64,000 bases of DNA, from the IMG/VR virus record IMGVR_UViG_3300028591_000072, positions 128,001 to 192,000 of that record; one strand, written 5' to 3'. The DNA comes from a virus. Taxonomy: Duplodnaviria > Caudoviricetes. This document shows, piece after piece, positions 1 to 27,247 of the stretch (position 1 is the first letter of the stretch; each line of letters starts with the position of its first letter). The notes beneath the pieces were generated by a model. That model saw only the letters and a program-made list of their open reading frames with translations. It was not told the DNA's origin and ran no database searches. Position numbers and translations under genes: made by a program.

Positions 1-127
1 CGTCTTTATTTTCACGCTGTTCGTCAATTACACGTTTAAAACCGCCTATTACATCTGTTTCTATTCCTGTCATACTTCCTGACTCATCTATTACAAAAAC
101 AATATTTACAAAACCGTTTTTACTCAT
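1..127 (-). CDS. von Willebrand factor A (vWA) domain protein, N-terminal part (runs off window)
   Basis: Not in the ORF track. Minus-strand translation from ATG 127 is MSKNGFVNIVFVIDESGSMTGIETDVIGGFKRVIDEQRENKD, with a hydrophobic strand and the MIDAS motif DxSGS. The start overlaps the upstream stop (ATGAGTAA). Confidence 0.8.
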   Translation of the reverse strand, partial: MSKNGFVNIVFVIDESGSMTGIETDVIGGFKRVIDEQRENKD

Positions 128-1277
128 TTTCTTTTATTATTTTTAGTAAATTATTTTTATCCGTTATAACATCATAAGGAAAATCAATTATAAAATTTGA
201 ATAATATAGAAGTTTAACATTGTTTTTATCACAAAGTTCTTTTTTTATTCTATCTCTTTCTTGTATTTGTTTTATTTTTTCTTCTGTATAAAAAGATTTT
301 TTATTTCTAGAATGAAAAAAATGCTGAATTCCTTGACATTCTATTCCAATATTATACTTAGGAATAAAAAAGTCAATAGATTGTTTTCCAAGCCAATCAA
401 ATTTTTTCCATCTTTCATGCTCTATATTATTAAGTGTTAATAAATTTTCAATTTCTTTTTCTAATTTACTTTCTTTACAATTTGGGCAGCCATCATTATT
501 TAAATGTCTATTTGGAGTTTGCCAAAATTCACCGTGTTCAGGACAAATTATACAAACTTTTGTATGATTATTTGTATATTCAACCTTTGAATAATCATAT
601 TTTTCTCCGTGAACTTTTTTTGCGTCATTTATGAATTCTTCTATGTTTTTTGTCCTGTTTTTATTTTTCATATAATTTCCGCATTTTGGACATCCTTGTC
701 CAAAAATATGCATATATGGTGCCTGAAAAAAATCTCCATGAATTTTACATGTAATACAAACTTTAGTATAATTATCTTTATATATTGTTTTAGAATAGTC
801 ATATTTGTTATCATGAATTTCATTTGATTTTTTTATGAAATATTCATTATCATATATTTTTTTACCTTTTCTTTTATTAGAGCATTTTTTACATTCATGC
901 CCACATAAATGATGTGAAGGTGTTTGCCAAAATTCGCCATGCTCAGGACAAATAATACAAACCTTTGTGTGGTTGTTTATATATTCAACTTTTGAATAAT
1001 CATATTTATTACCATAAAGTTCGATAGATTCTTTTATAAAGTCATCAGTTGTTTTTGATTTACATTTTGATTTTTTTTCATTAGAGCATTTTTTACATCC
1101 GTAGCCATTTAAATGTAAATTTGGTGTTTGCCAAAATTCTCCGTGTATTGGACATATTATGCAGACTTTAGTGTTCTTGTTTAAATACTTAACTTTTGAG
1201 TAATCATATTTATTGCCGTGTATATATTTTGATTTTTCAATAAATTCTTCTTTAGTTAATTTTTTCATAAAAGACAT
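120..1277 (-). CDS. Putative homing endonuclease: 4 Zn-binding repeats plus C-terminal PD-(D/E)xK/Vsr-like nuclease
   Basis: Repeats of FIxKxxxxHGxKYDYSKxxYxNxxTKVCIxCxxHGxFxQxPxxHxxGxxCxxC; C-terminal IDFFIPKYNIGIECQGIQH. Confidence 0.8.
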   Translation of the reverse strand: MSFMKKLTKEEFIEKSKYIHGNKYDYSKVKYLNKNTKVCIICPIHGEFWQTPNLHLNGYGCKKCSNEKKSKCKSKTTDDFIKESIELYGNKYDYSKVEYINNHTKVCIICPEHGEFWQTPSHHLCGHECKKCSNKRKGKKIYDNEYFIKKSNEIHDNKYDYSKTIYKDNYTKVCITCKIHGDFFQAPYMHIFGQGCPKCGNYMKNKNRTKNIEEFINDAKKVHGEKYDYSKVEYTNNHTKVCIICPEHGEFWQTPNRHLNNDGCPNCKESKLEKEIENLLTLNNIEHERWKKFDWLGKQSIDFFIPKYNIGIECQGIQHFFHSRNKKSFYTEEKIKQIQERDRIKKELCDKNNVKLLYYSNFIIDFPYDVITDKNNLLKIIKENE

Positions 1278-1284
1278 TTTATAT

Positions 1285-1292
1285 ATAAATAG
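1285..1292 (-). promoter_or_regulatory. CTATTTAT putative late promoter
   Basis: Recurrent motif just upstream of the nuclease gene start. Confidence 0.6.
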
Positions 1293-1394
1293 TAAAAAAC
1301 ATAAAAAATTAGCAAAAACAAAATAAAAATAAATATGTTTTTGTGCTATATTTAATCATTTTTAATTGTTTTTATTTAAAACTTAAAATACAAA

Positions 1395-1402
1395 CTATTT
1401 AT
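1395..1402 (+). promoter_or_regulatory. CTATTTAT putative late promoter
   Basis: Recurrent motif 20 nt upstream of ATG 1423. Confidence 0.6.
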
Positions 1403-1422
1403 AAACGTATAATTGTAATTTT

Positions 1423-1794
1423 ATGAAAAAGGAATATACTGATTTTATATGTGCATTGCATGGCTATACAATAAGAGTCAAAGAAATACATTGGAATACC
1501 ACAAATAATTCTGAACATTTATTATGTGATGAAATAAATGATTGCATTTTTGAATGTGAAGACGAATTTACAGAATGTTGCATGGGAATTGAGGGAAAAC
1601 ATTTTCAAATTGGGAAATTATTACCAATATTACCAAATGCAGAAAGTCTTTTGCCAATGCTAAAAGAACTTGAAGAAGATGTTTTATCAATGAAAAAAAA
1701 GTGTAATGACACAACAGAAAGCGGACTTACGAATGTATTAGACGATATGATGCAAAATGTTAATAAATTCAAATATAGAGCAACCCAAAAATGA
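1423..1794 (+). CDS. Small ferritin/Dps-like four-helix protein
   Basis: KEIHWN...EHLLCDE...EDEFTE pattern resembles the Dps-like HW/H..DE/E ligands. Confidence 0.55.
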   Translation: MKKEYTDFICALHGYTIRVKEIHWNTTNNSEHLLCDEINDCIFECEDEFTECCMGIEGKHFQIGKLLPILPNAESLLPMLKELEEDVLSMKKKCNDTTESGLTNVLDDMMQNVNKFKYRATQK

Positions 1795-2435
1795 GCAAAA
1801 AAACAATAATATTAACAGATAAACAACTTGACGAAATTGCAAATGGTGTAAGTAGTTATTTGGATACGTTGGGAACAACTCCTGATATGCCAGAAGATTT
1901 TGCAAATCAGACAAGTTTGGGCTCTAATGGATACGGAGAAGCTTATACTGACCCTGAAACATCAGATGACTTTGGAAAGCGCCACTACCCTGAATATAGA
2001 TGGGCATTGGGTCCAAGGACATTTGGAAAAGGTCCGTCAAATATTCATGAAATGTCAAAAAAAGATTGGGAAAACAAATATATTTTAAATGAAGAAGAAA
2101 AAAACGGGCAGCATTTATCAAATATTAATTTCGGCAATTCAGACAAACAATATTCAGATGATGCGATGACACAATATCAATACAGAAAAAGAAAAGCAGC
2201 AAGACAAGCATTAAATGGTTCAACACCAGAGGAAAAAATGAAAGGTCTCCAATCATTACAAAGAATAAATAACAACAACGGAAAAAGTAGAGAAGTCGCT
2301 GAAAAACAATTTAATGCAGCGAAGGCTTCTGCAAGAGTTTTGCCAAAAAAGATAAAATCAGCGCCAAAAACAGGAATTGGAACAACACATGACAAAAAAT
2401 TAAAAAACGGAATAATAACAACAGCAAAAGAATAA
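1791..2435 (+). CDS. Hypothetical protein, possible virion/internal head protein
   Basis: 214-aa ORF, ATGA-coupled; N-terminal IILTDKQLDEI motif shared with other late genes. Confidence 0.6.
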   Translation: MSKKTIILTDKQLDEIANGVSSYLDTLGTTPDMPEDFANQTSLGSNGYGEAYTDPETSDDFGKRHYPEYRWALGPRTFGKGPSNIHEMSKKDWENKYILNEEEKNGQHLSNINFGNSDKQYSDDAMTQYQYRKRKAARQALNGSTPEEKMKGLQSLQRINNNNGKSREVAEKQFNAAKASARVLPKKIKSAPKTGIGTTHDKKLKNGIITTAKE

Positions 2436-2455
2436 AATCAAAAAACTAAAATATT

Positions 2456-2830
2456 ATGCAAACTTGTTTAGAAAAAAAGGGTATTGAATCAAGACAAAAT
2501 CTATTACCAAGAAATGATTATACAAGGGTTGAAGAATACTCACAAACACACCCTGATGCATTGGCAACAGGAGACCCACAAGGAAAAGGAACAGGACATG
2601 GCGGACACACACATTCAATTCCAGATTGTACAGCACCTTCAACAATAAACTATTCTAATTTTGATACAAACGGCGGAGGTGGCTCATACGACATAAACGG
2701 AAGAAATGGCGTTGGTGGTAGGATTTTTTGCCAAAACATTTCAATGTACAACGAAGCAAATAGTTATTGTAATGTTTCAATTGATACAACAGCAAATGTT
2801 GCTGACGGACAAATTGTTATTAAGGCATAA
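2456..2830 (+). CDS. Gly-rich hypothetical protein
   Basis: 124-aa ORF within an operon; GDPQGKGTGHGGH motif. Confidence 0.65.
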   Translation: MQTCLEKKGIESRQNLLPRNDYTRVEEYSQTHPDALATGDPQGKGTGHGGHTHSIPDCTAPSTINYSNFDTNGGGGSYDINGRNGVGGRIFCQNISMYNEANSYCNVSIDTTANVADGQIVIKA

Positions 2831-3687
2831 TGAAAAAAAGACTAATACATATAAACGAGACCGTTTCATTATCTAAAAAAAGATTCGGAAAAGAAACTTG
2901 GCAATTAAGCAAAGAAGAAAAAATCCAATTTGCAATTGAAAATTGCCGTAGAATCCGAATTACTTATGACGATAAAAAAGGCGGGAAAGGTAAAAATACA
3001 AGATACCTTTTGCCATTGGTATATGGTATTACAAAAAACGGAAAAAGTGCAATTAGGGCCTTTCAGACTTATGGCTCAACAAAAAGAGGTGTTCCCAAAT
3101 ACAAACTTTTCCTAACAGACAACATAGGACAAGTTGATATCGGACGTGTAAAATATTATGATTATGAACAAGAATTATTAAGCACGGGATTTAACGATTC
3201 CGGAGATAAAGGATTCTCTGACATTTATTCGATAACCCCACTTGCAAGAAATTTCAATGTGGCAAATCTGTCAAATCAAAATCAACCAATAGATTCAAAC
3301 CCAGTTCAAAAATCAGATATTGATAAAGGAGAAAAGCCACAAGCAACGCCAACACATCAAACACGGCCAACGCAAACAATAAATGTTGCACAAAAAAATA
3401 TTGACAATTTAGGACAAAAAAGTTACTTTCAAAATAAAGTTGAGGCACCAGATACTGAGCCTGTTTCAAAAGGCGAAATCGAAAACGGGGAAAATATACC
3501 GCAGCCAACACAGGTAAGCCAATCACCAATTGATATTGGTGATGAAACGGAACCAGTAGAAAAATCAGATATCGAACCTCAAATTAATACAGATAATGTT
3601 TTATCTAAGTCTTATAAAGATATGATGGACAGAATGGATAATCTTTATAACGATGAAGATGAAGAAAATGATGAAGATAATTTATAA
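2830..3687 (+). CDS. WYL-like domain protein with disordered acidic C-terminus
   Basis: AIENCRRIRITY...TRYLLPLVYG...AIRAFQ...YKLFLTDNI resembles the WYL fold pattern. Confidence 0.55.
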   Translation: MKKRLIHINETVSLSKKRFGKETWQLSKEEKIQFAIENCRRIRITYDDKKGGKGKNTRYLLPLVYGITKNGKSAIRAFQTYGSTKRGVPKYKLFLTDNIGQVDIGRVKYYDYEQELLSTGFNDSGDKGFSDIYSITPLARNFNVANLSNQNQPIDSNPVQKSDIDKGEKPQATPTHQTRPTQTINVAQKNIDNLGQKSYFQNKVEAPDTEPVSKGEIENGENIPQPTQVSQSPIDIGDETEPVEKSDIEPQINTDNVLSKSYKDMMDRMDNLYNDEDEENDEDNL

Positions 3688-3692
3688 TTAAA

Positions 3693-4301
3693 ATGGCAGT
3701 TTCAAAACAACAATTAGCACAAATTATAGGAAAAGCAAGGGATTTATGTAATCCTGAAGGTGACAGGCTTGTTGAATCATATAAAGGTGATGGCAATTTC
3801 GATAGAAATGACCCAGACCCATCTTCATATGACGATTATTCTCAATTTGATAGAATGTACCTTAATGAAGAAGAAGATTATCAGCCACAAAAAAGAAATG
3901 TTCAAACAAAAGACATTAGATATAATCAGCAAACGGCAGCAAATAGCAAAATGCCTGACAAAATCAAACAATCAATGCTTAATGAAGTCATAGATGTAAC
4001 TGCATTGGATAATCAGTCTGTTTTATCAGGAATGGATATACCTGGCGTAAACAGAAAACCGCAACAAAGCAGAAGGCCCGTTAATGAACAACAATATCAG
4101 ACACAAGGCGGAAACATTGACTATTCAATAATAAAAGCAATTGTAAATGAATGCTTGAATGATTATTTCTCAAGACAACCATTGAATGAAAGCGCATCAA
4201 TTAGCACAATTGGACTAAAGCCAGGCGTTATAAAAGTGGTTGATAGTAAAGGAAATGTATTTTCAGGTAAACTTGAAAAAATAGGAAATACAAAAAATTA
4301 A
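3693..4301 (+). CDS. Hypothetical protein
   Basis: 202-aa ORF closing the operon. Confidence 0.7.
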   Translation: MAVSKQQLAQIIGKARDLCNPEGDRLVESYKGDGNFDRNDPDPSSYDDYSQFDRMYLNEEEDYQPQKRNVQTKDIRYNQQTAANSKMPDKIKQSMLNEVIDVTALDNQSVLSGMDIPGVNRKPQQSRRPVNEQQYQTQGGNIDYSIIKAIVNECLNDYFSRQPLNESASISTIGLKPGVIKVVDSKGNVFSGKLEKIGNTKN

Positions 4302-4322
4302 CGAAATAATGAATTTATAAAG

Positions 4323-4353
4323 AAAAGTCAGTCATAAACGGCTGACTTTTTTT
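4323..4353 (+). terminator. Intrinsic terminator
   Basis: AAAAGTCAGTC-ataaac-GGCTGACTTTTTTT. Confidence 0.8.
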
Positions 4354-4390
4354 GTTTATAGCAAACTATTTATAAAGAAAAGTTTTAGAA

Positions 4391-4966
4391 ATGAGTAAAA
4401 AACAAATTATTAAAATAAACGAAAGTCAATTAAAACAAGTTGTCACTGAAATTGTGAAAAAAATGTTGAAAGAAGAAACTTCAGACAGTTGGCAACATCA
4501 AGACTTTGATTTTAGAAACGCATGTGAAAGGCTTTGTGGAGAAATTGAATTAGGTAATTACGATAATAGAATAACAGATGCCGAATGGGTTGAAGACATG
4601 GAAAATAAATACGAAAATGATAATAATGGCACAGTTGGTAATATACGTAAGGCTATAAATGATAGATTATCCATAATTGCAAATGATTCATCAGGCAAAA
4701 GCCAGTATATGAGCAATGAAATAGCAAAAAGAATAGTATCTGAATCAATGAAAAATGTATTGAAAGAAGAACAAGAAAATACATATGAAACATTAATAGA
4801 AATTATGAATAAACTTGATATGATTATGCATAGCGGATTTATACCATTTTCTTCGCCAAGTCCTTCATCAACAGAAAAAAAAGTTGCTGATTCAATAAGG
4901 CAAGCAAATGAATTATTAAAACAAGCCGCCATTGGTTGTAAACAATTAGGATATGGGATTAATTAA
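4391..4966 (+). CDS. Hypothetical protein with INESQL motif, possible internal head protein
   Basis: Own CTATTTAT motif (4366-4373); internal repeat IVKKMLKEE / IVSESMKNVLKEE. Confidence 0.65.
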   Translation: MSKKQIIKINESQLKQVVTEIVKKMLKEETSDSWQHQDFDFRNACERLCGEIELGNYDNRITDAEWVEDMENKYENDNNGTVGNIRKAINDRLSIIANDSSGKSQYMSNEIAKRIVSESMKNVLKEEQENTYETLIEIMNKLDMIMHSGFIPFSSPSPSSTEKKVADSIRQANELLKQAAIGCKQLGYGIN

Positions 4967-4970
4967 ATAA

Positions 4971-5001
4971 AAAAAAGTCGGTCAAATGGCCGACTTTTTT
5001 T
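4971..5001. terminator. Bidirectional intrinsic terminator
   Basis: AAAAAAGTCGGTCA-aa-TGGCCGACTTTTTTT between convergent genes. Confidence 0.8.
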
Positions 5002-6535
5002 ATGCCTCAGTTTCTACTTCATTTTCAAATTCAAGAGCGTTTATTTTCTCTTCTTTTGCATCCAAAACATCAAGTATTGTACCGATTACAATGTCTTTAT
5101 ATTCTTTTGACATAAATTTGCCTGTCAATGGGTCCACATCAACAATTTCAAGCATTGCTTTTGGCATGTCTCCATCTTCAAAATCCTCAAGTTCTTCAAG
5201 AGTCATATTGAAAACAATTTCAGCAAACCTTGCTTTCACCTTGTCAATTCCAAGTTGTCTTTCACGTTTCATTCTTTCAATGTAATCGTTTTTGATTTGT
5301 TCCCAATCCATTTCACAGTAATCCAAATACGGTGGTTCCCATTCAGGATGCGACATCCAAAACTTAATTTCCCTATCATCAAGAGTCATAAGTTGTTCAT
5401 ATGTGTCTTGGTCTGATTCTTTATTTGGGAAGCCATTGCATAATTCACATTGGTCATATGTGAAATATTGTCTGTCATCAGGATTTGTAATTAAAATTTT
5501 ATTTCTAATTTCAGGCCTGAAGCAAACCAAAAGAGGCGTAATTCTTTTATTGAATTGGTCAATATACTTTTGTACATTATATTCTTCGCCCTCTTTACAC
5601 ATTATATCTTCTTCTGAATCAACAATTTCTCTTGGTACCAATTTGCAATTAAGTATGACCTCATCTTCGATTATAACATCTGAATGATGTCTTTTTACAT
5701 AATCGTTGAATGACAAAGCACGTTCTTTTGGCGCTAACTTTCCATCAACATTGTTTTTTTTCCATTCTTTTTCCAATGCAACCCTGTAATCGGTTTTTTC
5801 TCCAAATAATCCGTCTACTTTATAATAATGGGTTACTTTTTTTGCATCGGTTTGTGATTTTGTCTTACCGATATTGATATAATAAATGGTTTCTCCCATA
5901 CTGACATCAAGATTCTCTCTCAATGCAAGTTCCATCCATGCTTGTCTTGATTTAGGCCTACCTGCTTTTGTTATTGTTTTGCAATCTTCAATATATTCAT
6001 CCAATGATTTTTTAATTTTTCCTTTTGAAGCAATCATTTTCAATGGAATTTGATAATTGTAAATTTTTTCGATATAGTCATAATATGCTTCAATAAAGTC
6101 TTGGCCTTTTTTGCTCAAAAGAAGTCTTATACCTTTTTCCAAGAATTTTGAAATATATTCAGGCATTTTTTTGGATTTAATTGTGTTACCAACCATTTTA
6201 ACATCCTTCGGAAATTCTTCATCAGGGAAATAGTCTGCATAGTTCTTTCTACTAAAGTTAATTGTTGCATCAACTATTTCGTCAATTCCAAGACCCATTT
6301 TATTAACGCAATTAGGACCATAATGAAAATCTTTCATAAACATATCATTAAACTCAGCAACATCAGCTTTAAATCCAGTATATTCTGCACCCGGTTTAGT
6401 TTCTCTTGAAAGACCTAAACTAACATATGGGTTATTTTTTGAATATCTATATTCACTTTTTTCAACATTTAGCCCAAAATACTTTGGTAAAGTAAGGGTC
6501 TTATCTTTTACTTTTATATTATAAAATTTACTCAT
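5000..6535 (-). CDS. Family B DNA polymerase, C-terminal part (rest of palm and thumb), with a 26-aa intein-C-like leader
   Basis: GLGIDE...NFSRKNYA (KKRY-equivalent), KMVGNTIKSKK, GETIYY, YNVQKYIDQF thumb-like motifs; follows the N-terminal part across a nuclease gene. Confidence 0.8.
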   Translation of the reverse strand: MSKFYNIKVKDKTLTLPKYFGLNVEKSEYRYSKNNPYVSLGLSRETKPGAEYTGFKADVAEFNDMFMKDFHYGPNCVNKMGLGIDEIVDATINFSRKNYADYFPDEEFPKDVKMVGNTIKSKKMPEYISKFLEKGIRLLLSKKGQDFIEAYYDYIEKIYNYQIPLKMIASKGKIKKSLDEYIEDCKTITKAGRPKSRQAWMELALRENLDVSMGETIYYINIGKTKSQTDAKKVTHYYKVDGLFGEKTDYRVALEKEWKKNNVDGKLAPKERALSFNDYVKRHHSDVIIEDEVILNCKLVPREIVDSEEDIMCKEGEEYNVQKYIDQFNKRITPLLVCFRPEIRNKILITNPDDRQYFTYDQCELCNGFPNKESDQDTYEQLMTLDDREIKFWMSHPEWEPPYLDYCEMDWEQIKNDYIERMKRERQLGIDKVKARFAEIVFNMTLEELEDFEDGDMPKAMLEIVDVDPLTGKFMSKEYKDIVIGTILDVLDAKEEKINALEFENEVETEA

Positions 6536-8000
6536 TTTTCCAAATATATTTAATTAATCCGCAATCCCATATTTTTATAAAACCAAGTTTGTCACAAATT
6601 TCTTTTTCTGTTAATGTGGTATCTATTTTATATTTTTTATATAAAATATTTTTTCTAAATCCAAATTTATGAAATCTTTTTTGCTCTCCACCTTTTATGT
6701 ATTTATAATCTGGCGGTGTGTACTTTTCAAAATTAAAACCAATTTTTGTATAAAAATTTCCAATTAAGTCATTAGACCATCTTCTATCAGCAAATGACTT
6801 TACTTCTTTTGGATTATATTTTTTAATAAAATAAGAAAAAAGTTTTCCTCCTACTCCACAACAAATTTTTGATGTATCCGTCGCATATCTGTTTAATTCC
6901 CATTTGTCACCATTCTTTTTTTCTTTTTTAAAAGTCATTACTCCAATTAATTCTCCTTTGTAAAAACATCCTAAATATACACTTGATTTTACTTCTCCTT
7001 GAATGTGAAATGAGTTTAAGAATTGCTTTGATTCACTATATGTTATATCTTTTACATTGCAATTTCTTGCATAAATTTTATCATTTGTTGTTTTGTTTAA
7101 AATATGAGAAATCTTATTTAACACTATTTCTTTTTTATAAAGATATTCATCTTCAAATATTTGAATTAGTCTTATACCATTATTTTTACACATTTCTGTT
7201 TTTTCCAAATGATAATTTTTATTTTTTATACATTTTTCAGAATGCCAAAAAAGTCCATTATATTCAATTCCTATTTTATATTTTGGAATGTAGATATCTA
7301 TTTCAAATGGCTTAATAGATTCTCTATCATTTTTTATAACATTATCTTTTCCTATTAATGAAACAATGTATTCGTAAATTTCATTTTCTGGCTTTGAAAT
7401 TTTAGAAAAGCAAGAAGGACATCCTCCTTGTGGCGATGTTAAATGGTCACACGCAATTTTTTCAAACTCAGTACCACAATCATTACATTTTATTGTAATT
7501 TTAGAATGGCTATTTTCATATTCTTTTTCAATATATGGAAATGAATATTTTTCGCCAAATCTATTTGTTGATTCTTTTATAAAATGTGAAAAATCATTTT
7601 TTCTATATTCTGAAGCATATTTTTTTCCACACAACGGGCATCCTTGTCCTCTTAAATGATTATTAGCTGCTTGTTCAAAATCGCCATGAATTTTACAAGT
7701 AATAATAACTTTACTTCTTTTATTTACATATTTAGTTTTTGAATAATCGTACCTGTTACCGTGAACACTTATTGCTTTTTCAATAAAAGATTCAGAATCT
7801 CTCTTTTTTAACCCAACACATGAAGGGCATCCATTTCCATTAAGATGTGAGTACGGCTTTTGCCAAAACTCGCCATGCTTAGGACATATTATACAGACTT
7901 TTGTTTGTGAATTAACATAATAAGCCTTAGAATAATCATATTTATTTCCGTGTATTAATTTTGCTTTTTCAATAAAAATTTCAGTATTATATTTTTCCAT
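6528..8000 (-). mobile_element. Free-standing homing-type endonuclease inside the polB locus (Zn repeats + PD-(D/E)xK + Hef/GNAT-like C-terminal domain)
   Basis: CPKHGEF/CKIHGDF repeats; EIDIYIPKYKIGIEYNGLFWH; WELNRYA...GGKLF...SFADRRWS; own CTATTTAT at 8028-8035. Confidence 0.8.
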
Positions 8001-8036
8001 ATGCTTGTTTATAATCCATTTTTATTAATAAATAGT

Positions 8037-10295: not shown

Positions 10296-10346
10296 TTAAA
10301 ATAGCCAAATCCCTTGGCATGCTTATTCGCTGTTATTTTTATACTA

Positions 10347-10862: not shown

Positions 10863-10885
10863 AATTTAAATTTTCATTTTTATAA

Positions 10886-13216: not shown

Positions 13217-13217
13217 T

Positions 13218-16327: not shown

Positions 16328-16393
16328 ACCACACGCACGAGAAACATTTTTTTATTATGATTTTACTATTTATCTTTAAAGAATTAAAAATAA

Positions 16394-16939: not shown

Positions 16940-17022
16940 TGCACAGTGTATAGTTCTATTTATACGATAGAAAATTCATTCAAAAGTAAAAAGAAGTTAT
17001 TAAAAAAAATATTTTCATTTAA

Positions 17023-18183: not shown

Positions 18184-18281
18184 TATTGAATATAAAGATT
18201 ATTTTTAATAAATGTAATTTGTTTTTTGGTTTTTTAGTGCTATTTATAAAGAAAATAATAAAGTAAAAAAAATAAAACAAT

Positions 18282-21050
18282 ATGATAAGTGATGCAAGAG
18301 GCAGACATGTTTCACCTGGTGTCTATACTGAAGAAAAAGATGTAACTTATTCAGTTAATAGTCTTGGGATTACAAGTCTTGGACTTGTTGGAGAAACATT
18401 ATATGGTCCTGCTTTTGAAAACATTGAAATAACAGATTGGAATGATTTTGTTGATTACTTTGGAGGAACATCATCTGAAAAATTCAGAAAAACAGGCTTG
18501 CCAAAGTACGAGCTTCCATATATTGCAAAAAGTTACTTGACGAAATCAAAGAGGCTTAACGTTGTAAGGGTTCTTGGATTATCAGGATATGATGCAGGAA
18601 AAGCATGGGTTGTTAAAGTTAAAACTACAAAAGGAGAAGTAAAACCATTGATTGTTTTAAGAAGTAAAATGTCATATAATGTTCCTGGAGATGGTGGTAT
18701 ATGTGCGCCAAATAATGACAACGCTGAGGAATTAGTTACCGGAATAACTATTAGTGATTACAAACCAGCTTTTTATTCTTCAAAATGTCACACAAGTGAA
18801 GCAGTAAAAGTAATTGATTCGTATAAAAAGTTGTGTATTACTGCAAACTTGAAGAATGGGGGAACTGAAATATATAATGTTACATTAGACCCAAGGGATA
18901 GTGATTATATATATAAAGTAATTAGTTCAAGCCCTGAAAATGGTAAAAGTTCAATATATGTTGAGGCTGTTTTTGAAGAAGGTATGAGATATGACAGTAA
19001 TGTTGATACAGAAAAACCTGAAATACAGAAAGAAATAACAGTACTTGATTCAGAAACATATAGTGATTATAAGAGCCAATATAGATGCGCACAAACTCCT
19101 TGGCTTGTATCAGAAGCATATGCTTCACAAGAATCAAACGGAGAAGATGCTGCATGTGGATTAAAGATTACCCTTAGAAGGTTATTTAAATTATTAACGA
19201 TTTCCGATGGTAATGCATCAAATTATCAAGTTAAGGTTTCAATTGAAAGGATAAATCCTTATGATGGTACATTTGATGTTGTTGTTAGAGATTTCAACGA
19301 TAATGATACTTATCCTATTATACTTGAAAAATTCTCAAGATGTACAATGACAAAGGGAGATTCTTCGTATATTGGATATAAGATTGGTACAAGTGATGGA
19401 TTGTTTGCAACAAAGTCAAAGTATATCACAGTTATGTTTGCTGATGATAATGAAGACTATAGTGGAAGCGTTCCTTGTGGATTTTTAGGGTATCCTTGCC
19501 CTGATTATGATATTTCAGTTCCTGATATAACATATAATACTGTTTTTGACCCAAAAATAAAAGCAAAGAAACAATATTTTGGCCTTTCAAGCGTTGATAC
19601 TGATTTCTTGTCTTTCAAAGGAACCAAGTTGTATAATGATGAACTTGGAGGAAAAGCAAAGTCAGAACAATGTGCCGATGATGACAGTTGCTGCTATGTA
19701 CTTGATGCTAAATATACAAAAGGATTCCATATGGATTCAATATTTGAAAAAATAGAATCTGATGAAGAATCAGGAAGCAATGACATAGTTTTAGTTGATG
19801 GAGAAGAATATAATGATGGATTTATATGTGTTTCTGGAAAGAAGGTTACAGCATATGACTATGCTCCTAGAATTACAGCAGAAAGAGCACCTGATAAAGA
19901 AGAATATGCACCAAGGGTTATGAATGCTGGCTATATGAATGACACAATTTATAAAGACCCTGCTGTTCGTAAGTTTACTGTTTGTTTCTATGGAGGTTTT
20001 GATGGATGGGATGTTCATAGAGGATATAGAACTACATTAAATGAATTTAATGCAAATGTATACGGACAAAGCAATATATATGGCCCGGTTTGTAATTGGG
20101 ATTATTATAAGATTCCTCAAAATATGAACAACACAAGCGACTATTATGCATTCTTGGCTGGATATCAAGTGTTTTCAAATCCTCAAGATGTAGAAATAAA
20201 CTTGTTTGCTACTCCTGGAATTGATTGGATGAACAGTTCGCTTTTAACGCAGGACGCAATTCATATGATAGAAGACCCTGAAGACGGTAGGGGCGGAGAT
20301 GCTTTATATATAATGAACGCACCATATTGTGACTACAGACCTGTTGTTACTACAGCAGAAGGATACGGTATATCACCAATTTTTGATGTTGAAGAACTTT
20401 CTTCGTTGTTTGATGAAACTGAAATCAATTCTTCATATGCTTGTACATATTTCCCATGGATTTTGTATAAAGACACCGTTAGAAATGAATATTTGTATTT
20501 GCCTCCGACAAAAGATGTTGTTAGAAACATTGCTGACACAGACAACACATTATTCCCATGGTATACGCCAGCCGGTATTTCTCGTGGAACCGTTGTATGT
20601 GAAAAAGCCGCAATAAAGACAACTTTAGTTGATGAGGATGTATTATATAATAATAGAATTAATCCAATCAAGACATTCGGAAAAGATGGTGTTAAAGTTT
20701 GGGGTAATAAGACTGCTTATGAAATTGATAGCCCTCTTAACAGAATCAATGTAAGAAGACTTATGATTAGAGTTAAGAAACTTGTCACTTCAGCGTCAAA
20801 ACACTTGATATTTGAACAATATGACGATGCTCTTGAAAAACAATTTAGAGGTTTGATTGAACCAATTCTTGCAGAAGTAAAATCAAATAGAGGTATATTT
20901 GATTATAGGGTCGTTACTGAAGTAACTCCTGAAACAAGAGACCAACACATTCTTCCATGTAAGATTATGATTAAGCCAACACCTGCTTTGGAATACGTAT
21001 CAATATCATTTGTTGTATATCCGGAGTCGGTTCAATTTGAAAATGACTGA
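18282..21050 (+). CDS. Contractile tail sheath protein
   Basis: SPGVYTEEKD N-terminus; PWYTPAGISRG, INPI, VKVWGNKT, LNRINVRRL, IKPTPALEYVSISF. Confidence 0.95.
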   Translation: MISDARGRHVSPGVYTEEKDVTYSVNSLGITSLGLVGETLYGPAFENIEITDWNDFVDYFGGTSSEKFRKTGLPKYELPYIAKSYLTKSKRLNVVRVLGLSGYDAGKAWVVKVKTTKGEVKPLIVLRSKMSYNVPGDGGICAPNNDNAEELVTGITISDYKPAFYSSKCHTSEAVKVIDSYKKLCITANLKNGGTEIYNVTLDPRDSDYIYKVISSSPENGKSSIYVEAVFEEGMRYDSNVDTEKPEIQKEITVLDSETYSDYKSQYRCAQTPWLVSEAYASQESNGEDAACGLKITLRRLFKLLTISDGNASNYQVKVSIERINPYDGTFDVVVRDFNDNDTYPIILEKFSRCTMTKGDSSYIGYKIGTSDGLFATKSKYITVMFADDNEDYSGSVPCGFLGYPCPDYDISVPDITYNTVFDPKIKAKKQYFGLSSVDTDFLSFKGTKLYNDELGGKAKSEQCADDDSCCYVLDAKYTKGFHMDSIFEKIESDEESGSNDIVLVDGEEYNDGFICVSGKKVTAYDYAPRITAERAPDKEEYAPRVMNAGYMNDTIYKDPAVRKFTVCFYGGFDGWDVHRGYRTTLNEFNANVYGQSNIYGPVCNWDYYKIPQNMNNTSDYYAFLAGYQVFSNPQDVEINLFATPGIDWMNSSLLTQDAIHMIEDPEDGRGGDALYIMNAPYCDYRPVVTTAEGYGISPIFDVEELSSLFDETEINSSYACTYFPWILYKDTVRNEYLYLPPTKDVVRNIADTDNTLFPWYTPAGISRGTVVCEKAAIKTTLVDEDVLYNNRINPIKTFGKDGVKVWGNKTAYEIDSPLNRINVRRLMIRVKKLVTSASKHLIFEQYDDALEKQFRGLIEPILAEVKSNRGIFDYRVVTEVTPETRDQHILPCKIMIKPTPALEYVSISFVVYPESVQFEND

Positions 21051-21066
21051 TTAACAGTATTTTAAT

Positions 21067-21094
21067 AAAGCCAATGGATTTCATTGGCTTTTTT
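21067..21094 (+). terminator. Intrinsic terminator after sheath
   Basis: AAAGCCAATG-gattt-CATTGGCTTTTTT. Confidence 0.8.
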
Positions 21095-21161
21095 GTAATT
21101 TTTTTTTCATTAAAAAAAACTTTTTCAGGATTTTCACTATTTATTAAAAAAAAAGTTATAT

Positions 21162-22144
21162 ATGAAAAAAAAATAAATGATTTTATAGAAAAAGCAAACT
21201 TTGTTCATAAAAATAAATATGATTATTCAAAAGTTAAATATAATAATTGTAAAGAAAAAGTATGCATTATATGTTCAGAACATGGTGAATTTTGGCAAAC
21301 GCCAGATGGACATATACAAGGAAGAGGGTGCCCTGTTTGTCGTTATATAAATTCATCAAAAAATAATGCATTAACAAAAGAAAGTTTTATAAAAAAAGCA
21401 AAAAAAATTCATGGTGATAAGTATGACTATTCAAAAGTTGAATATGTTAATAATAGAACGAAAGTTTGTATAATTTGTCACGAAAAAGATGAATTTGGTA
21501 ATGAACATGGTGAATTTTGGCAAGACCCAACAGGACATATTGATAAGAAAGCAGGATGCCCAAGATGTTCAAAAAATCACAAATATACAACTGAAGAATT
21601 TTTAAATAAATTACCACTATGGTTGAAAGAAAAATATGATTTTTCAAAATTTTCATATGTTAGAACACATGACAAATCAATATTAATATGTCGTGAGCAT
21701 GGCGAATTTTTAATATCACCACACAATATAATTAAAGGGGTTGGATGTCCTGGATGTAGTGAAAGTAAACTTGAAAGGCAAATTAGACTTTTTTTAAAAG
21801 AAAAAAATATTGTGTTTATATCGGAATATAAACATAATAAAAATTTTGGAAAACAGGCGATAGATTTTTATTTACCTGATTATAATATTGCAATAGAGTG
21901 TCAAGGAATACAGCATTTTATGCCAACTGATTTTGCCGGAAAAGGAAATGAATGGGCTGAAAATGAATATGAACATATTATAGAACTTGATTTGAATAAA
22001 CAAATATTATGTAAAGAAAATAATATTAGTCTTTTGTATTTTACAACAAATGAAAATAAACAATTAGTGACTGAATCAAGAAATATGCATTTTAATGGTT
22101 ATTATATTTTTACTGATGTTGAAGAATTAAATAACTATTTATGA
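21162..22144 (+). mobile_element. Homing-type endonuclease (3 Zn repeats + PD-(D/E)xK); probable start ATG 21162 is out of frame across an A9 tract
   Basis: HGEF repeats; IDFYLPDYNIAIECQGIQH. The ORF-track ATG (21074) lies in the terminator, upstream of the promoter motif at 21137. Confidence 0.7.
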
Positions 22145-22157
22145 AAAAATAAATGTT

Positions 22158-22490
22158 ATGAAAAGAATTTTTACTTTTTTGCTAATGGTGTTTTTATTGT
22201 TTTCGTGCAAAACACATCAGAATGTTGGTGAAATAACATTTGGAGCACCAATAATGATTAATCTATATGAAATGACAATAACGCAACACCAACTTGATTC
22301 CATATGCGAAGTGGATATGATTCCGACATATGACAAGTGGATAAAAACAAGTTTCATTGACTATGAAACAGATTCTGTTTTCACGAAAAGACTTTATTTG
22401 AAATCATATTCAGATGAAAATGAAGTGATATATATTCTTCTTGGTGAAAGAGAGCCATATAAAATAACAAAAAGAATTGCTGAACAATGA
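22158..22490 (+). CDS. Lipoprotein
   Basis: MKR + hydrophobic stretch + lipobox LFSC. Confidence 0.75.
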   Translation: MKRIFTFLLMVFLLFSCKTHQNVGEITFGAPIMINLYEMTITQHQLDSICEVDMIPTYDKWIKTSFIDYETDSVFTKRLYLKSYSDENEVIYILLGEREPYKITKRIAEQ

Positions 22491-23116
22491 AAAACATAGA
22501 TAATTTGGGGTTTGTTCCTTCAATAATAAACGGCACTGAAATTTTGTTTGAGTGCCCGAAAGATGCAGATTTGCCTGAAAAATATTCTTATGTGAATGTA
22601 TTGCCACAAGTGATAAATCAAGGAAAACTATCAATATGTGTACCTTGCTCAATGTCTGCATACTTGAATTGGAAAGCAAATTTGAATACATTAACAAATA
22701 ACGATAATGCGATTGTTTTGTTTGATATTTACAATAGCCGTGAAAACAAGGGAGACGGAATGACATTCAAGGCGGCTTTTAAATATTTAAGGCATAATGG
22801 CGTTGATTCTGCAATTGGAATTTTAAAAATCGGGCATTATGGAAAAATAAACAAAATAGATGATTTGAAATTTGCAATAGTTTCAAATGGGCCTTGTTTT
22901 GGTGCTTTGCCTGTATATGGCAACCATTGCGATTTTTGGAACAAGAAAGTTGGTACTACATTGCACGGATACCACGCAATATCAATTGTTGGATATGATT
23001 CAGAAGGATTTATAATAAGAAATTCTTGGGGAAAGGAATTTTGTGAAAATGGATATACAAAGATAAGTTATGAAAATTTTGAAAAATTACTTGAAATTTG
23101 GACTGTAATTGATTAG
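22487..23116 (+). CDS. Papain-like (C1 family) cysteine peptidase
   Basis: NQGKLSIC (oxyanion Q, catalytic C), GYHAISIVGY (H), IRNSWG (N). Confidence 0.9.
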   Translation: MKNIDNLGFVPSIINGTEILFECPKDADLPEKYSYVNVLPQVINQGKLSICVPCSMSAYLNWKANLNTLTNNDNAIVLFDIYNSRENKGDGMTFKAAFKYLRHNGVDSAIGILKIGHYGKINKIDDLKFAIVSNGPCFGALPVYGNHCDFWNKKVGTTLHGYHAISIVGYDSEGFIIRNSWGKEFCENGYTKISYENFEKLLEIWTVID

Positions 23117-23132
23117 ATTTTTTTAAAAAAAA

Positions 23133-24074
23133 ATGAATGTTTTAGTTACTGGTGCTGAAGGACAACTCGGAAGATGCATTGTTGATATATTTAGAAAGTT
23201 TGATGCTGAAAATAAATATGTATTTATGCCAAGAGACCTGTTTGATTTGACAAATAAAGGACAAATGGCTGAACAATTTGAAAGATTTAAGCCTGATATT
23301 GTTGTAAATTGTGCTGCATATACAAATGTAGAAAAAGCGGAAGAAAATTCAATTGATACAATTGGTGTAAATTATCTTGGGGTTGGAGATTTAGTAAAAC
23401 TATGTGAAACTTATGGTGTATATTTAATTCATATTTCAACTGATTATGTTTTTAATGGAAAATCAAGTAAGCCATACAAAGAAGACTCAAATGTAAATCC
23501 ATTAAATGTTTATGGCGCTTCTAAACTAGGTGGAGACAATTTTGTTGTTGGATACAACAGAGGAATTGTTTTAAGGACTTCATGGCTTTATTCTGAATAT
23601 GGCCACAATTTTTATAGGACAATGATTGAAAGAATACGTGAGCAAAAAGAAACAAATGTAGTTAATGACCAAATAGGAACGCCAACATATGCAAAAGATT
23701 TGGCTTTGTTTATAGTAAGAGATTTAATTGCTTCAAATAAATACAAAGAAGTTAAAGGAATTTATAATTTTTCAAATAACGGAATTGCGTCATGGTATGA
23801 TTTTGCTTCAATGATAGAAACATTCTATCAAAATTTCGGTCCATATGAGCCAATGATAAAAGACCCTGTTGATATTAAATTTGAAGTTAGCCAGTATCAA
23901 AAGAAATACATAATTCCAATCACAACAAAGAAATACAAGACAAAAGCCAAAAGGCCGATGTATTCAGTTCTTGACAAAACGAAAGTTGAAAATGAATTTG
24001 GAATTAAGATTCCACATTGGTCTGAGTCACTTTTGCAATGTATGATTGATGATGGGAAAATTAAAAGAAACTAA
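23133..24074 (+). CDS. rmlD: dTDP-4-dehydrorhamnose reductase
   Basis: VTGAEGQLG, NCAAYTNV, HISTDYVF, YGASK, DQIGTPT, RPMYSVLD. Confidence 0.93.
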   Translation: MNVLVTGAEGQLGRCIVDIFRKFDAENKYVFMPRDLFDLTNKGQMAEQFERFKPDIVVNCAAYTNVEKAEENSIDTIGVNYLGVGDLVKLCETYGVYLIHISTDYVFNGKSSKPYKEDSNVNPLNVYGASKLGGDNFVVGYNRGIVLRTSWLYSEYGHNFYRTMIERIREQKETNVVNDQIGTPTYAKDLALFIVRDLIASNKYKEVKGIYNFSNNGIASWYDFASMIETFYQNFGPYEPMIKDPVDIKFEVSQYQKKYIIPITTKKYKTKAKRPMYSVLDKTKVENEFGIKIPHWSESLLQCMIDDGKIKRN

Positions 24075-24076
24075 TA

Positions 24077-24868
24077 GTGAAAAAGATTTTGTTTTTTTAT
24101 TTTTATACATTTCATAATTTTTTAGAAAACATTGCTATTAAGATGCATTTATGGTATCTTAATAAATATAGCCACATATTTGATAAAGCAATTTTTGTAA
24201 TTTCATTAAAAGAAAATGATGAAGAATTAATTATAGATACAAAAATTAATATTTTAAAAAATCTTCATGTAAATGATGTTGAATTTAAAGTAATTAAAGA
24301 TAATGATTTACATGAATCTGGCGCTTTCAAAACAGAGGTGATTGATAAACTTGATAGCATTGATGGACTTGTTTTTTGTGCACATACAAAAGGCATTAGT
24401 AATTTTGGTAAATATAATGAAGAATCAATAAAATTATGGATTAGTAGCCTTTGGTATTATAATTTAGAACATGTTTATGATGTTGTTAATGAACTTGTTT
24501 ATCATGAAAGAAAAGCATTATATGGGGCGTATCTACTAGACGATAGAATAGATAAAATTGTAAAATTCAACAAAAATAATTGTTGGTATGCAGGTAATTT
24601 TTATTGGATTAATGCCGGAAAATTGAAATATGACATTGATAATATCAACAACAGTATGCTTACACGATGTTATTCTAAATATTTTTTTGAAAAGTTTCCT
24701 GGAGAAGTTTATAATATTGAAAAACTTGGTAGTTTTGAAAATAAGTCAGTAAGAACAAGTAAATTTCATACTTATTTTTGTAAAATTGAAGATGTTGTAA
24801 ATTATTTTGGAGATAATGAAAAGTTTAAAGAACAATTTTATTTTATGAAAAATGAATTATGTATATAA
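24077..24868 (+). CDS. HTKG-motif protein, putative glycosyltransferase-like; paralog of 58068 and 58871
   Basis: HTKGISN, WI...YYNL, YAGNFYWIN, EKFPG. Confidence 0.55.
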   Translation: MKKILFFYFYTFHNFLENIAIKMHLWYLNKYSHIFDKAIFVISLKENDEELIIDTKINILKNLHVNDVEFKVIKDNDLHESGAFKTEVIDKLDSIDGLVFCAHTKGISNFGKYNEESIKLWISSLWYYNLEHVYDVVNELVYHERKALYGAYLLDDRIDKIVKFNKNNCWYAGNFYWINAGKLKYDIDNINNSMLTRCYSKYFFEKFPGEVYNIEKLGSFENKSVRTSKFHTYFCKIEDVVNYFGDNEKFKEQFYFMKNELCI

Positions 24869-24896
24869 TAAAAATAAAAAAAAATAATTAATTATT

Positions 24897-25562
24897 ATGT
24901 TATGCAGAACTGATATTATAAATAATTTAATAGAAAAAAATGGATTTAAAACATATTTGGAAATTGGGCTTGATAATCCATTTAATAATTTTGTGGAAAT
25001 TAATTGTTTAACAAAACATAGTGTTGACCCTTTTATTGTACGTGATAATAGTTTTGATTTTATTGATTGTGGAAAAAGTAAAGATGACTTAGAAGAAGAA
25101 ATAAAAAGGGCACTTCCATATCTTACATTTAGGACAACATCTGATGATTTTTTTGAAAAAACAAGTTTAAAGTATGATATAATTTTTATTGATGGATTAC
25201 ACACAGAAAGGCAATGCGGTAAGGATATTATAAATGGGCTGAAACATCTTAATGAAGGTGGTTATATAATTGTTCATGATTGTCTTCCTTCACAAGAAGT
25301 TTCACAAATCATACCAAGAAAAGTCATTGAATGGAACGGTGATGTTTGGAAATGCATTCCTGAATTGAATAAACAATTTATAGGCTATGATGTAGTTGAT
25401 TGTGATTTTGGATGCGGTGTCATAAAGTATACTCCTGATTGGAAATATTTACATTATCTTGACAAATCAATATATGAATGGAATGATTTTGAAAAAAACA
25501 GGGATAAATTGATGCATGTAATAAGCGAACAAGAATTTTTGGAAAAATATATTTATAATTAA
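24897..25562 (+). CDS. Class I SAM-dependent methyltransferase (Methyltransf_24-like)
   Basis: YLEIG, TSDDFF, YDIIFIDGLH, GGYIIVHD. Confidence 0.85.
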   Translation: MLCRTDIINNLIEKNGFKTYLEIGLDNPFNNFVEINCLTKHSVDPFIVRDNSFDFIDCGKSKDDLEEEIKRALPYLTFRTTSDDFFEKTSLKYDIIFIDGLHTERQCGKDIINGLKHLNEGGYIIVHDCLPSQEVSQIIPRKVIEWNGDVWKCIPELNKQFIGYDVVDCDFGCGVIKYTPDWKYLHYLDKSIYEWNDFEKNRDKLMHVISEQEFLEKYIYN

Positions 25563-25569
25563 AAGTAAA

Positions 25570-25600
25570 AAAAAGGCTGAAATTAACATTCAGCCTTTTT
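25570..25600. terminator. Bidirectional terminator
   Basis: AAAAAGGCTGAA-attaaca-TTCAGCCTTTTT. Confidence 0.75.
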
Positions 25601-27247
25601 CCATATATATCTGATTAAGCCACAGTCGTATATCTTTTCATACCCAAGTTGTTTCGTCATTTCTGATTCTGTCATTGATAACGGTAATCCATATTTATGG
25701 TTTAGCGTTTTTTTTCTAAAGCCAAACTTATGCTGCCTTTTGATTCCATCGGAAGGGTTGAAGTATTTGTAATCCGGCGCTGTATATCCGTCAAATACAA
25801 ATCCAAGCTTTGTATAGACATTTGATTCTTCGTTTATTGTCCATCTTCTGTCTGCAAAGGATTTAATAACGTCAGGACCGTATTCCCTTACGAAATATTT
25901 GAACAGTTTACCACCAACACCTTGGCAAATGTAATTGTAATCACTTGCAAATCTAACCAATTCCCATCTATTGCTTTCTTTTGTTTCTTTTTTGAACGAC
26001 ATTACGGCTATTAGCGAATTGTTAAAAAATGCACCAATGTTAATTGTAGAAGGACCATATCCTTGTATGTGGTATTTGTTAAGGAAACTTTTAGCCAAGC
26101 CATTGTCAATTTCCTTTATTTCACATTTTCTTCCCATTATTTTTGGAAGGTTTTCGCTAACACCAACCAAATGCTTTATCTTGTTTAGTACAATATCCTT
26201 GCTGTTTACGTATTCATCTTCGAAAATCTGGATTAGTTTTACCCCCTTTTCTTTACAAGCATTTAGTTTTTTTAAATGGTTGTTTTTTTCTATGTTTGAA
26301 TGCCAAAAAAGTCCATTATATTCAATCCCAATTTTTAATGACGGAACATAAATATCTATTTCTTTTGGAAGAATTAGTTTTCTTTCGCTTTGTATTACAT
26401 TTTCTTTTCCAATTAATGATGTAACATAATCAAAAATTTCAGATTCTGCTTTTGATATATGATGAACACACTTTGGGCATCCGTTTCCGTCAAGATGCCT
26501 CCATGGAGCTTGCCAAAATTCGCCGTGTTTTGGGCATATTATGCAAACTTTGTTTTTTCCCGTAACATATTCAGTTTTTGAATAATCATATTTGTTATTA
26601 TGTATTTTGTTTGATTTTTCAATGAAATCTTCGGTTGTTAATCTTTTTGACAAACCAAGTTCTTCATGGGAACATTTTTTACAAGATGAACCTTTAAGAT
26701 GCAAATATGGCAATTGATAAAATTCTCCATGTTTAGGGCAAATTATACAAACTTTTGTAAGCATATCAACGTATTCTGTTTTTGAATAGTCATATTTACA
26801 ATTATGCACTTTATTTGCCTCTTGTACAAAAGTTTCCGTTGTGTATTTTTTATTCTTATGGATTGATTTTGAACATATAGGACAACCTTTTCCTTTTAAA
26901 TGGTTATGTGGGTCTTGAAAAAATTCGCCGTGTTCTGGGCATATTATACAAACTTTTGTGTGGCTATTAACATATTCAACTTTTGAGTAGTCATATCTAT
27001 TTCCATGTATTTGTTTTGCTTTTTTAATGAACGAGCTATTAGAACTCTTCATTGTTTTTGAACAGAATGGGCATCCTTGTCCAATTAAATGTTTATCTGG
27101 CCTTTGAGAAAATTTTCCATGTTTTTTACAAATTATTGTTATGTTAGTTTTATTGTTTGTATAAGATACTTTTGAATAGTCATATCTATCTCCATGTATT
27201 TGTTTTGCTTTTTCTATAAAAGTTTTTGTTGTATTTTTTTTACTCAT
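25583..27247 (-). mobile_element. Homing-type endonuclease (4 Zn repeats + PD-(D/E)xK + Hef/GNAT-like domain); paralog of 6528-8000
   Basis: EIDIYVPSLKIGIEYNGLFWH; WELVRFA...GGKLF...SFADRRW. Confidence 0.8.

Follow-up and report, generated by a model that had tools for sequence, protein, structure and literature searches.

Four genes in a 64,000-nucleotide stretch of viral DNA (the window; positions 128001-192000 of the 302,581-bp single-contig record IMGVR_UViG_3300028591_000072) join tandem arrays of cysteine-rich modules to a C-terminal Vsr-like nuclease domain, and we consider it likely that they are free-standing homing endonuclease genes, carried as optional inserts by a 302-kb phage. 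The source is a jumbo tailed phage, as judged from its sheath, tube, polB and SNF2 genes. In the whole genome nine genes carry such modules (ten open reading frames, ORFs, were flagged, the tenth being a false match in the opposite frame). The members are new, but the kind, an array of zinc modules with a nuclease, has already been described.

We propose that an array of approximately 65-aa zinc-stapled modules would bind a long DNA site, and that the nuclease, of the Vsr-like/EDxHD type, would cut a neighbouring conserved gene in a co-infecting phage without the element, after which repair would copy the endonuclease gene together with flanking DNA. Several residues per module would set the specificity, namely two that follow the P of a Q-x-P-x-x-H segment, a loop at module positions 14-16 and a G-x-G position, with each module covering about 4-5 bp and mostly first and second codon positions. 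Recognition would be modular, yet degenerate and context-dependent, with no code of one residue for one base. Proteins of the gene-3 and gene-4 type may in addition bind a mimic of their site at their own promoter and thereby repress themselves, and carriers would recode their own target site. Genes 2 and 4 carry an additional Mom-like domain, to which we assign no role.

Architecture of the four genes

The genes and their parts are as follows.

120..1277, minus strand: gene 1, 385 aa, four putative zinc modules and a Vsr-like/EDxHD nuclease (E-D-ExQGxQH-D-K), inserted upstream of a vWA gene
6528..8000, minus strand: gene 2, 490 aa, two canonical modules and one C4-type module, Vsr-like nuclease and Mom-like GNAT domain; Hef-like
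21074..22144, plus strand: gene 3, two canonical modules and one degenerate module, Vsr-like/EDxHD nuclease
25583..27247, minus strand: gene 4, whole gene
26456..27247, minus strand: four-module array of gene 4, variable segments starting at 27106, 26917, 26716 and 26512
26168..26455, minus strand: Vsr-like nuclease domain of gene 4 (E268, D298, E309, H316; His at the last Asp)
25583..26122, minus strand: gene 4, Mom-like GNAT domain (residues 376-554, approximately)

An initial annotation had described four genes that pair repeated modules with a nuclease, and the translations bear this out; all 12 Q-x-P-x-x-H segments that it listed as variable are found in them, no two alike. Its count of three to four modules per gene is right for genes 1 and 4, with four canonical copies each, while genes 2 and 3 reach three only with a degenerate copy: the third module of gene 2 has C-x2-C where the others have C-x2-H, and in that of gene 3 the variable segment reads SPHNI. 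The module size of roughly 65-70 aa is approximate, as the variable segments lie 63-75 aa apart, and to call the scaffold nearly constant was an overstatement, since the genome's 20 canonical modules average 59% amino acid identity over a 45-residue core. The GNAT domain of genes 2 and 4 had been overlooked.

The putative zinc module

The module belongs to the DUF723/DUF4379/CapR group, as evidenced by profile matches. At the level of the whole protein, gene 1 passes the Pfam gathering score for DUF723 (27.7 against 20.9), and genes 2 (DUF4379, 38) and 4 (34) pass theirs of 24.5, with gene 3 slightly under it at 22.5. Among 140 modules, 89 match DUF4379, 72 DUF723 and 37 CapR at E<=0.1, and Atlas features give 0.96 to DUF723 clusters. 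The family is very large: a search with the module profile returned 32,596 clusters at 50% identity, with a maximum of 14 modules in one protein.

Four positions, C, H/C, C and C, are conserved with the spacing C-x2-H-x15-C-x2-C within 63-75 aa, and are the presumed zinc ligands of a putative DNA-binding module. In the AlphaFold model (pLDDT 90) a helix is followed by a beta-hairpin, a short helix that begins at P-x-x-H-L and a further helix after C-x2-C. Modelled in full, gene 4 scores high in local but low in global confidence (pLDDT 88.6, pTM 0.55), which fits beads on a string. C2H2 fingers, joined by TGEKP-type linkers, follow the pattern C-x2-4-C-x12-H-x3-5-H over some 28 aa, and TALE repeats are near-identical units of 33-35 aa with one variable di-residue that read one base each. 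The module was ruled out as a C2H2 finger by its ligand spacing and length, and as a TALE repeat by the 59% identity between modules and the presence of several variable patches.

Variability was assessed as positional entropy over 758 unique modules from 221 proteins, a set in which the zero-entropy positions were forced by the search pattern. As the initial annotation had led us to expect, variability in the core peaks at the two residues that follow P (3.71 and 3.45 bits, 182 distinct pairs), but several others are close behind: positions 15, 16 and 32 and two L-x-G-x-G positions reach 3.1-3.5 bits, and the linker is likewise variable. Near-duplicate modules within the same protein occur in 7 of 250 proteins; recent whole-module duplication is rare. 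The suggestions that such modules confer specificity like beads on a string and that the family retargets by shuffling repeats had in fact been published (Barth et al. 2023, PMC10448857).

Predicted specificity-determining positions

Gene-4 orthologs were delimited on the C-terminal domains alone, yielding a clade of 27 rows, from which 21 with four detected modules were kept and 6 dropped. In these 21 proteins (mean identity of the nuclease part 62%), residue identity within and between repeat positions is 0.54 and 0.07 at module position 34, 0.68 and 0.11 at position 35, and 0.60 and 0.15 at position 15, compared with 0.19 and 0.17 at position 11 and 0.24 and 0.23 at position 13. Positions 34, 35, 14 and 15 and one G-x-G position are thus constant for a given repeat position and different between repeat positions, whereas the similarly variable positions 3, 11, 13, 25 and 30 show no such per-repeat conservation.

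The same pattern is seen in the DNA, which was available for 7 orthologs. The proportion of nonsynonymous differences (pN) at positions 34/35 and 14/15 is about 0.20 within a repeat position and 0.53-0.61 between repeat positions, although silent sites are saturated (proportion of synonymous differences, pS, 0.78-0.94; for 34/35, pN 0.20 against 0.53 with pS 0.78). At control positions pN is 0.43 within and 0.46 between. Purifying selection at these sites is position-specific, and a low pN within the repeat position is the signature of specificity-determining positions, which these residues are predicted to be.

The initial annotation had suggested that Q-x-P-x-x-H may be a recognition helix carrying a modular base-reading code. 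The segment does start a short helix in the model and is conserved per repeat in the gene-4 orthologs, but this conservation is not confined to it; the loop at positions 14-16 and the G-x-G position carry the same signal, and a simple modular code in the segment alone is not upheld. We regard it as probable that the segment and a second loop both contribute to the recognition surface.

A predicted target in the tube gene

The regions upstream of gene-4-type genes resemble a stretch of the neighbouring tube gene. For the window we list:

27558..27575, minus strand: predicted gene-4 target in the tube gene, codons D-P-T-G-A-V, here GAC CCA ACA GGC GCT GTT
27302..27354, plus strand: two degenerate operator-like copies (GACCAT/GCCAT core), reversed with respect to gene 4; weak

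The likeness to the D-P-T-G-A codons was first spotted by eye, and all tube windows were then scanned. The scan chose D-P-T-G-A with a combined Z of 10.7 (0 of 150 shuffles as good), and it was the region's own best window in 4 of 6 regions; a control gave Z 3.0 (80 of 150 shuffles). Out-of-sample support comes from locus L175, which lay outside the scan set and in which the insert sits at the opposite flank of the tube gene, with the motif 19 nt before the ATG. An operator matrix built from eight upstream copies ranked the tube site second among 605,162 genome positions and first in 7 of 7 non-carrier loci; by our own arithmetic the chance of a top-two site falling inside the 489-bp tube gene is about 0.3%. 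Conversely, with a model made from non-carrier tube alleles, the matching array types occupy ranks 1-6 of 156 upstream regions (5 distinct loci).

Recoding of the site goes along with carriage. The Gly codon is GGC in the window and GGT or GGA in non-carriers, and overall each of the 7 close carriers shows either GGC/GGG at this codon or W-L in place of the W-I that follows shortly downstream, as against GGT/GGA in 11 of 11 and W-I in 10 of 10 non-carriers. The distance from motif to ATG is 17-20 nt in 5 loci, and L084 has four copies in both orientations. A Shine-Dalgarno signal was rejected as the source of the motif, as such words are nearly absent from this genome (4 of 155 ORFs). A scan by the repeat-2 motif alone retrieved 14 loci (4 distinct and new, the rest duplicates), of which 12 have the tube gene; the other two are a truncated duplicate and a locus whose array is different. 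The correlation of variable residues with the neighbouring gene, put forward in the initial annotation, is therefore present: array type tracks the locus.

Two further observations concern this region. A second tube site, R-D-P-I-G-P, has a P exchanged for A, C or L, both in the window and in L073, L075, L076 and L082, and is perhaps the target of another endonuclease. In the window's gene 4 and in L184, reversed GACCA-type motifs replace GACCC, and in both proteins position 15 of module 2 is Ser, where Asn would otherwise stand; this is a hint of a link between residue and base, from one phylogenetic contrast alone.

A predicted target in the sheath gene

A corresponding pair of sequences is found for gene 3:

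21018..21032, plus strand: predicted target of gene 3, last sheath codons Y-P-E-S-V
21118..21132, minus strand: operator-like motif AATCCTGAAAAAGTT, upstream of gene 3 and beside a TATTTAT promoter-like motif

The site reads TAT CCG GAG TCG GTT in the window and TAT CCW GAR AGY GTW in non-carriers, so that its Ser codon has changed from AGY to TCG. The Y-P-E-S-V window scores Z 8.25 (0 of 120 shuffles), and the region with AATCCTGAAAAAGTT is tied first among the 156 upstream regions, in which the array types matching a model from non-carrier sheath alleles rank 1-5. The Pro codon CCT is used by none of 5 gene-3 carriers and by 5 of 8 other alleles.

The mimicry of a neighbouring coding sequence recalls I-TevI, whose operator has 15 of 20 positions identical to its homing site according to the accessible part of PMC2988022, and by this analogy we infer that the upstream motifs are operators. 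The targets are probably tube D-P-T-G-A-V for the gene-4 type and sheath Y-P-E-S-V for the gene-3 type, both being predictions from sequence. A site of 18 bp for four modules and one of 15 bp for three correspond to about 4-5 bp per module. No residue-to-base rule could be derived from the array-motif pairs compared.

Evidence against and competing explanations

A number of results weigh against homing endonucleases that read these sites through the named residues. On the side of the residues, a second ortholog comparison (16 pairs, 71 module pairs, mean identity 73%) gave no separation, with kappa 0.48 and 0.61 at test positions and 0.20-0.63 at controls. It is weak because its pairs are closer and four of them have unrelated arrays, yet it is not supportive. 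The gene-4 clade was drawn from the best matches of gene 4 and from a rapid tree that had not run to completion (clade support 85), and the pN control positions were selected after the identity result of the 21 orthologs had been seen. No solved structure was found for the module: a PDB sequence search returned nothing, the best Foldseek match has E 0.75, and VIA-align against the PDB reached Z 3.8 with an rmsd of 3.4 over 57 residues. Note that a missing PDB match does not make the module fold new.

On the side of the sites, the own upstream region of the window's gene 4 ranks only 27th of 156, with L073 19th and L184 10th; L175 carries the array and still retains GGT and W-I; and a second tube D-P-x-G site is operator-like as well. 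The orthologs share ancestry, which inflates the combined Z, and the regions scored are those from which the target windows had initially been chosen. The sheath site comes first in just 2 of 6 loci, all of them in-sample, and is weaker than the tube site. In L189 modules 1 and 2 differ while the upstream motif is identical to that of the window's gene 3. For gene 1, comparison with three vWA alleles and with gene 1423 yielded no operator (10-73 of 100 shuffles scored equally well), and a generic single-locus operator test showed no clear excess, with 8 of 107 module genes and 4 of 107 controls at p<=0.05.

The 16-pair comparison, the lack of a general operator excess and L189 are what would be expected if the variable residues were unconstrained surface positions, the modules non-specific binders or spacers, and the upstream motifs relics or insertion scars. 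We think this quite improbable. At saturated pS, pN is low only within the repeat position, and a relic would hardly keep its 17-20 nt to the ATG in 5 loci, occur four times in both orientations in L084, or move with the array to a new location as in L175; nor is the motif a Shine-Dalgarno signal.

At the other extreme the modules might follow a context-independent, readable code, in which their residues fix a short DNA word and units are interchangeable, as in TALE or zinc-finger arrays. The position-specific conservation in gene-4 orthologs would agree with this, as would the 182 residue pairs, which are mostly polar, the arrays of up to 14 modules across the 32,596 clusters, the joining of close nuclease domains to wholly different arrays, and a pTM of 0.55 with pLDDT 88.6, which suits independent beads. 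Against it stand at least six variable positions and position-specific linkers, the operator shared by L189 and the window despite different modules 1 and 2, and the similar operators that accompany variants of repeat 1 (DK/YK/EK) and repeat 4 (DK/EK/WH). The HN pair common to genes 3 and 4 has no consistent sub-site on inspection, and near-duplicate modules are confined to the 7 proteins mentioned above. We therefore hold such a code to be unlikely and prefer homing endonucleases with degenerate, context-dependent recognition.

A related and still doubtful proposition is that modules of the DUF723 type are natural, portable units that each read about 4-5 bp of DNA, with a preference set by two loops (14-16 and 32-35). 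If it were true, module-DNA pairs could be read from metagenomes through the promoter-side target mimics that some of these genes keep. With over 30,000 sequence clusters to draw on, the code could be learned, and the module would join zinc fingers and TALEs as a third programmable repeat scaffold, one that nature has already fused to nucleases and to a Mom-like DNA-modifying domain.

Optional presence and the split polB gene

In close relatives each of the four genes is either absent or replaced by a different module gene in the same place. A module gene adjoins 5 of 11 sheath, 10 of 33 tube, 1 of 5 polB and 0 of 2 vWA alleles, and gene 1 is missing upstream of vWA in both relatives available. 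This patchy distribution with altered flanks is the pattern of free-standing homing endonuclease genes, as described in the accessible part of PMC2988022. Divergence of vWA was considered as a mark of gene 1 and rejected, as L006 and L007 differ equally from each other. Searches for further relatives gave full-length matches to gene 2 of about 50% identity at best, none in a vWA scan, 4 matches in GTDB of which 0 lie in a module gene, and in a further viral scan only L175, which was already known.

Gene 2 lies between the halves of a split polB, which is intact (1163 aa) in L005 and L006:

8037..10295, minus strand: polB N-half, intact counterpart in L005 and L006
8037..8201, minus strand: foreign tail of the N-half, like the start of the L007 split intein, truncated, K replacing the S/C nucleophile
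5000..6535, minus strand: C-half of polB, starting with some 25 aa of foreign sequence (the head); it overlaps gene 2 at that gene's end

On both sides of gene 2 the nucleotide identity of polB to L005 drops from mostly 92-100% to mostly 76-91%; two smaller dips occur elsewhere in the gene. The tail aligns to the L007 intein with a score of 59 (0 of 2000 shuffles; 30 of 2000 against L076) and is shared by P0273 and P0274. The head of the C-half is not significantly intein-like (128 of 2000 shuffles). The split falls about 10 codons after a GD/T site, the head is basic, and the net charges are about -4 for the tail and +4 for the head. Tail and head may be what is left of an inactive split intein, retained because they clasp the two halves non-covalently, such as has been suggested for the tails of Aeh1 NrdA (PMC3045599, in part). 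We rejected an active split intein in the window's polB, which lacks the C/S start and the N-before-C/S/T end, both of which are present in L007 and L076. Also rejected was a tie between the split and a polB patch near codons 625-641, as P0273 and P0274 pair the same tail with an ordinary patch. In L007 (3792-11772) and L076 (6487-18136), a split intein that looks complete fractures polB at GD/S...SN/T, and at least two module genes separate the halves; the tube gene of L076 lies there too, and in L007 the C-half is broken again by an intron-like insert.

Could the genes have ceased to be selfish and been domesticated by the phage, as regulators or as nucleases for repair or defence? One relative, CapR, is domesticated (PMC8096241), and gene 3 looks frameshifted: the ATG at 21162, taken as its start in the initial annotation and equivalent to the start of its orthologs, is out of frame and reads M-K-K-K-stop over an A9 run, and the nearest in-frame ATG is at 21074. 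The patchy presence, the different arrays swapping at the same sites and the foreign polB tract around gene 2 nevertheless make domestication highly unlikely compared with homing. Decay, a slippage switch or an assembly error are candidate causes of the A9 run (21162-21176), and the ATG at 21074 is located within a terminator-like stem.

Nuclease and Mom-like domains

Genes 1 and 3 retain the catalytic E, D, E, H and D, which are invariant as E4, D33, E44, H50 and D73 in 42 nuclease domains; the only PDB match of their nuclease profile is AbaSI (E 0.099). The gene-4 profile matches I-Bth0305I (3r3p, E 2.2e-5). In genes 2 and 4 the E, D, E and H are kept, but a His is aligned with the last catalytic Asp. 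NCBIfam gave weak Vsr/RimI matches alone. The combined nuclease and GNAT part matches phrog_3339 (E 2.7e-105 for gene 2 and 1.1e-94 for gene 4), and the C-terminal part of gene 4 matches 420 phage records, 405 of which cover at least 80% of the query. Several top-matching records are annotated as Hef-like, with about 40% identity to the part in genes 2 and 4, which by these matches belongs to a widespread Hef-like family.

The best fold match of the GNAT domain is Mu Mom (8bv8, E 1.1e-6). Five of six alignable Mom active-site positions are retained (H58, R111, D149, R151 and Y159, their equivalents invariant in alignment A1), and the sixth, S124, is Gly in genes 2 and 4. Among 90 rows, duplicates included, this position is Gly in 70 and Ser in 18, with 2 unassigned; the hhalign probability to Mom is just 8.5%, and the Gly call is also backed by the G-A-S-[KR]-L of distant relatives. 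S124 is essential in Mom (PMC13219725, accessible part), and loss of activity and a switch of nucleophile are possible readings of the change. In the gene-4 clade a Cys stands a few residues upstream of the Gly (C-x-G-V-G-G-K), and distant relatives have G-A-S-K and no Cys. Mom further requires an HTH-like insertion (residues 175-209), which lies beyond the region covered by the alignment.

These data bear on the notion that genes 2 and 4 encode a single-chain cut-and-protect system resembling restriction-modification, with the array aiming both the nuclease and an active Mom-like acylating domain. Such a role has been proposed for jumbo-phage Mom-REase fusions (Iyer 2021, PMC7824862, as far as its accessible text goes), and the fold match and the five invariant positions are compatible with it. 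The Gly at the essential S124, the low hhalign probability, the absence of the domain from genes 1 and 3, and the recoding of the predicted target by close carriers, needless if the site were modified, lead us to give this notion little credence and to retain homing as the likely function of all four genes.

Further features

Genome-wide, 39 of 198 long ORFs have TATTTAT in the 60 nt that precede them (about 2% expected), and the motif is probably a phage promoter. Two RNA read runs of one study, X2 and X3, contain 0.67 and 0.30 of the words from window positions 20500-27900; runs with a small word share were taken as no evidence. At 54183-57578 the window encodes the anaerobic ribonucleotide reductase NrdD with an intein bearing a LAGLIDADG-like domain, and at 28447-29765 a T5orf172/MUG113 gene and a Vsr/DUF559 gene, which have no modules and, unlike the optional module genes, are kept in most relatives. 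A module-bearing gene in L001 (G000:C1 37616-38734) has a C-terminal part that is GIY-YIG-like by eye, with no nuclease match in Pfam.

Relation to known systems

C2H2 arrays and TALEs likewise consist of tandem modules, with variable residues at the start of a helix after a beta-hairpin as in the present module, and a natural fusion to a nuclease is a further point of likeness. The differences lie in the module ligands, length and linkers, the 59% inter-module identity, the several variable patches and the predicted 4-5 bp per module.

The closest relatives are the CapR/DUF723-type finger repeats. Barth et al. (2023, PMC10448857) report them on homing endonucleases, with emergent specificity and inter-repeat recombination, and Netter et al. 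(2021, PMC8096241) that CapR binds DNA and needs its cysteines for this. As far as the accessible parts of these papers extend, the T5orf172 CapR-type endonucleases likewise place zinc modules N-terminal to the nuclease and share the Pfam matches, but differ in ligand spacing (CxxC..24-26..CxC in CapR as against C-x2-H-x15-C-x2-C) and in the nuclease, T5orf172 rather than Vsr-like; specificity positions and targets, named here, are not identified in those parts. The Vsr-like nuclease family, Hef included, was defined by Dassa et al. (2009, PMC2677866) and Taylor (2011). Both the former and I-Bth0305I (PMC3239194) show, in the portions available, a C-terminal Vsr-like nuclease behind an N-terminal modular binding region, and EDxHD/Vsr-like endonucleases are also found between the halves of fractured genes (PMC2677866). 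I-Bth0305I has two NUMOD2/HTH motifs and is intron-encoded, unlike the window genes, and the His at the last Asp sets genes 2 and 4 apart from EDxHD/Vsr-like endonucleases. Hef, as described in PMC2988022 and PMC3239194, has the nuclease and GNAT part (phrog_3339) in common with genes 2 and 4; from Hef-like proteins and the Mom-REase fusions noted in PMC7824862 the two genes differ by the Gly at Mom S124 in their clade and by three to four putative zinc modules in front. I-TevI likewise has a homing-site mimic beside its own promoter (PMC2988022, accessible part); here the genes are free-standing, the nuclease is of another family, and autorepression is a prediction.

A search of the open-access literature, supplements lying outside it, returned no paper tying these modules to specificity positions or operators. 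If the modules are portable, they would provide a new genome-targeting scaffold; if not, they represent a well-annotated case of ordinary phage homing. What the present analysis adds are candidate specificity residues and two predicted array-target pairs, and through these named pairs the proposal that the repeats set specificity, published in PMC10448857 as far as its accessible text shows, is now directly testable.

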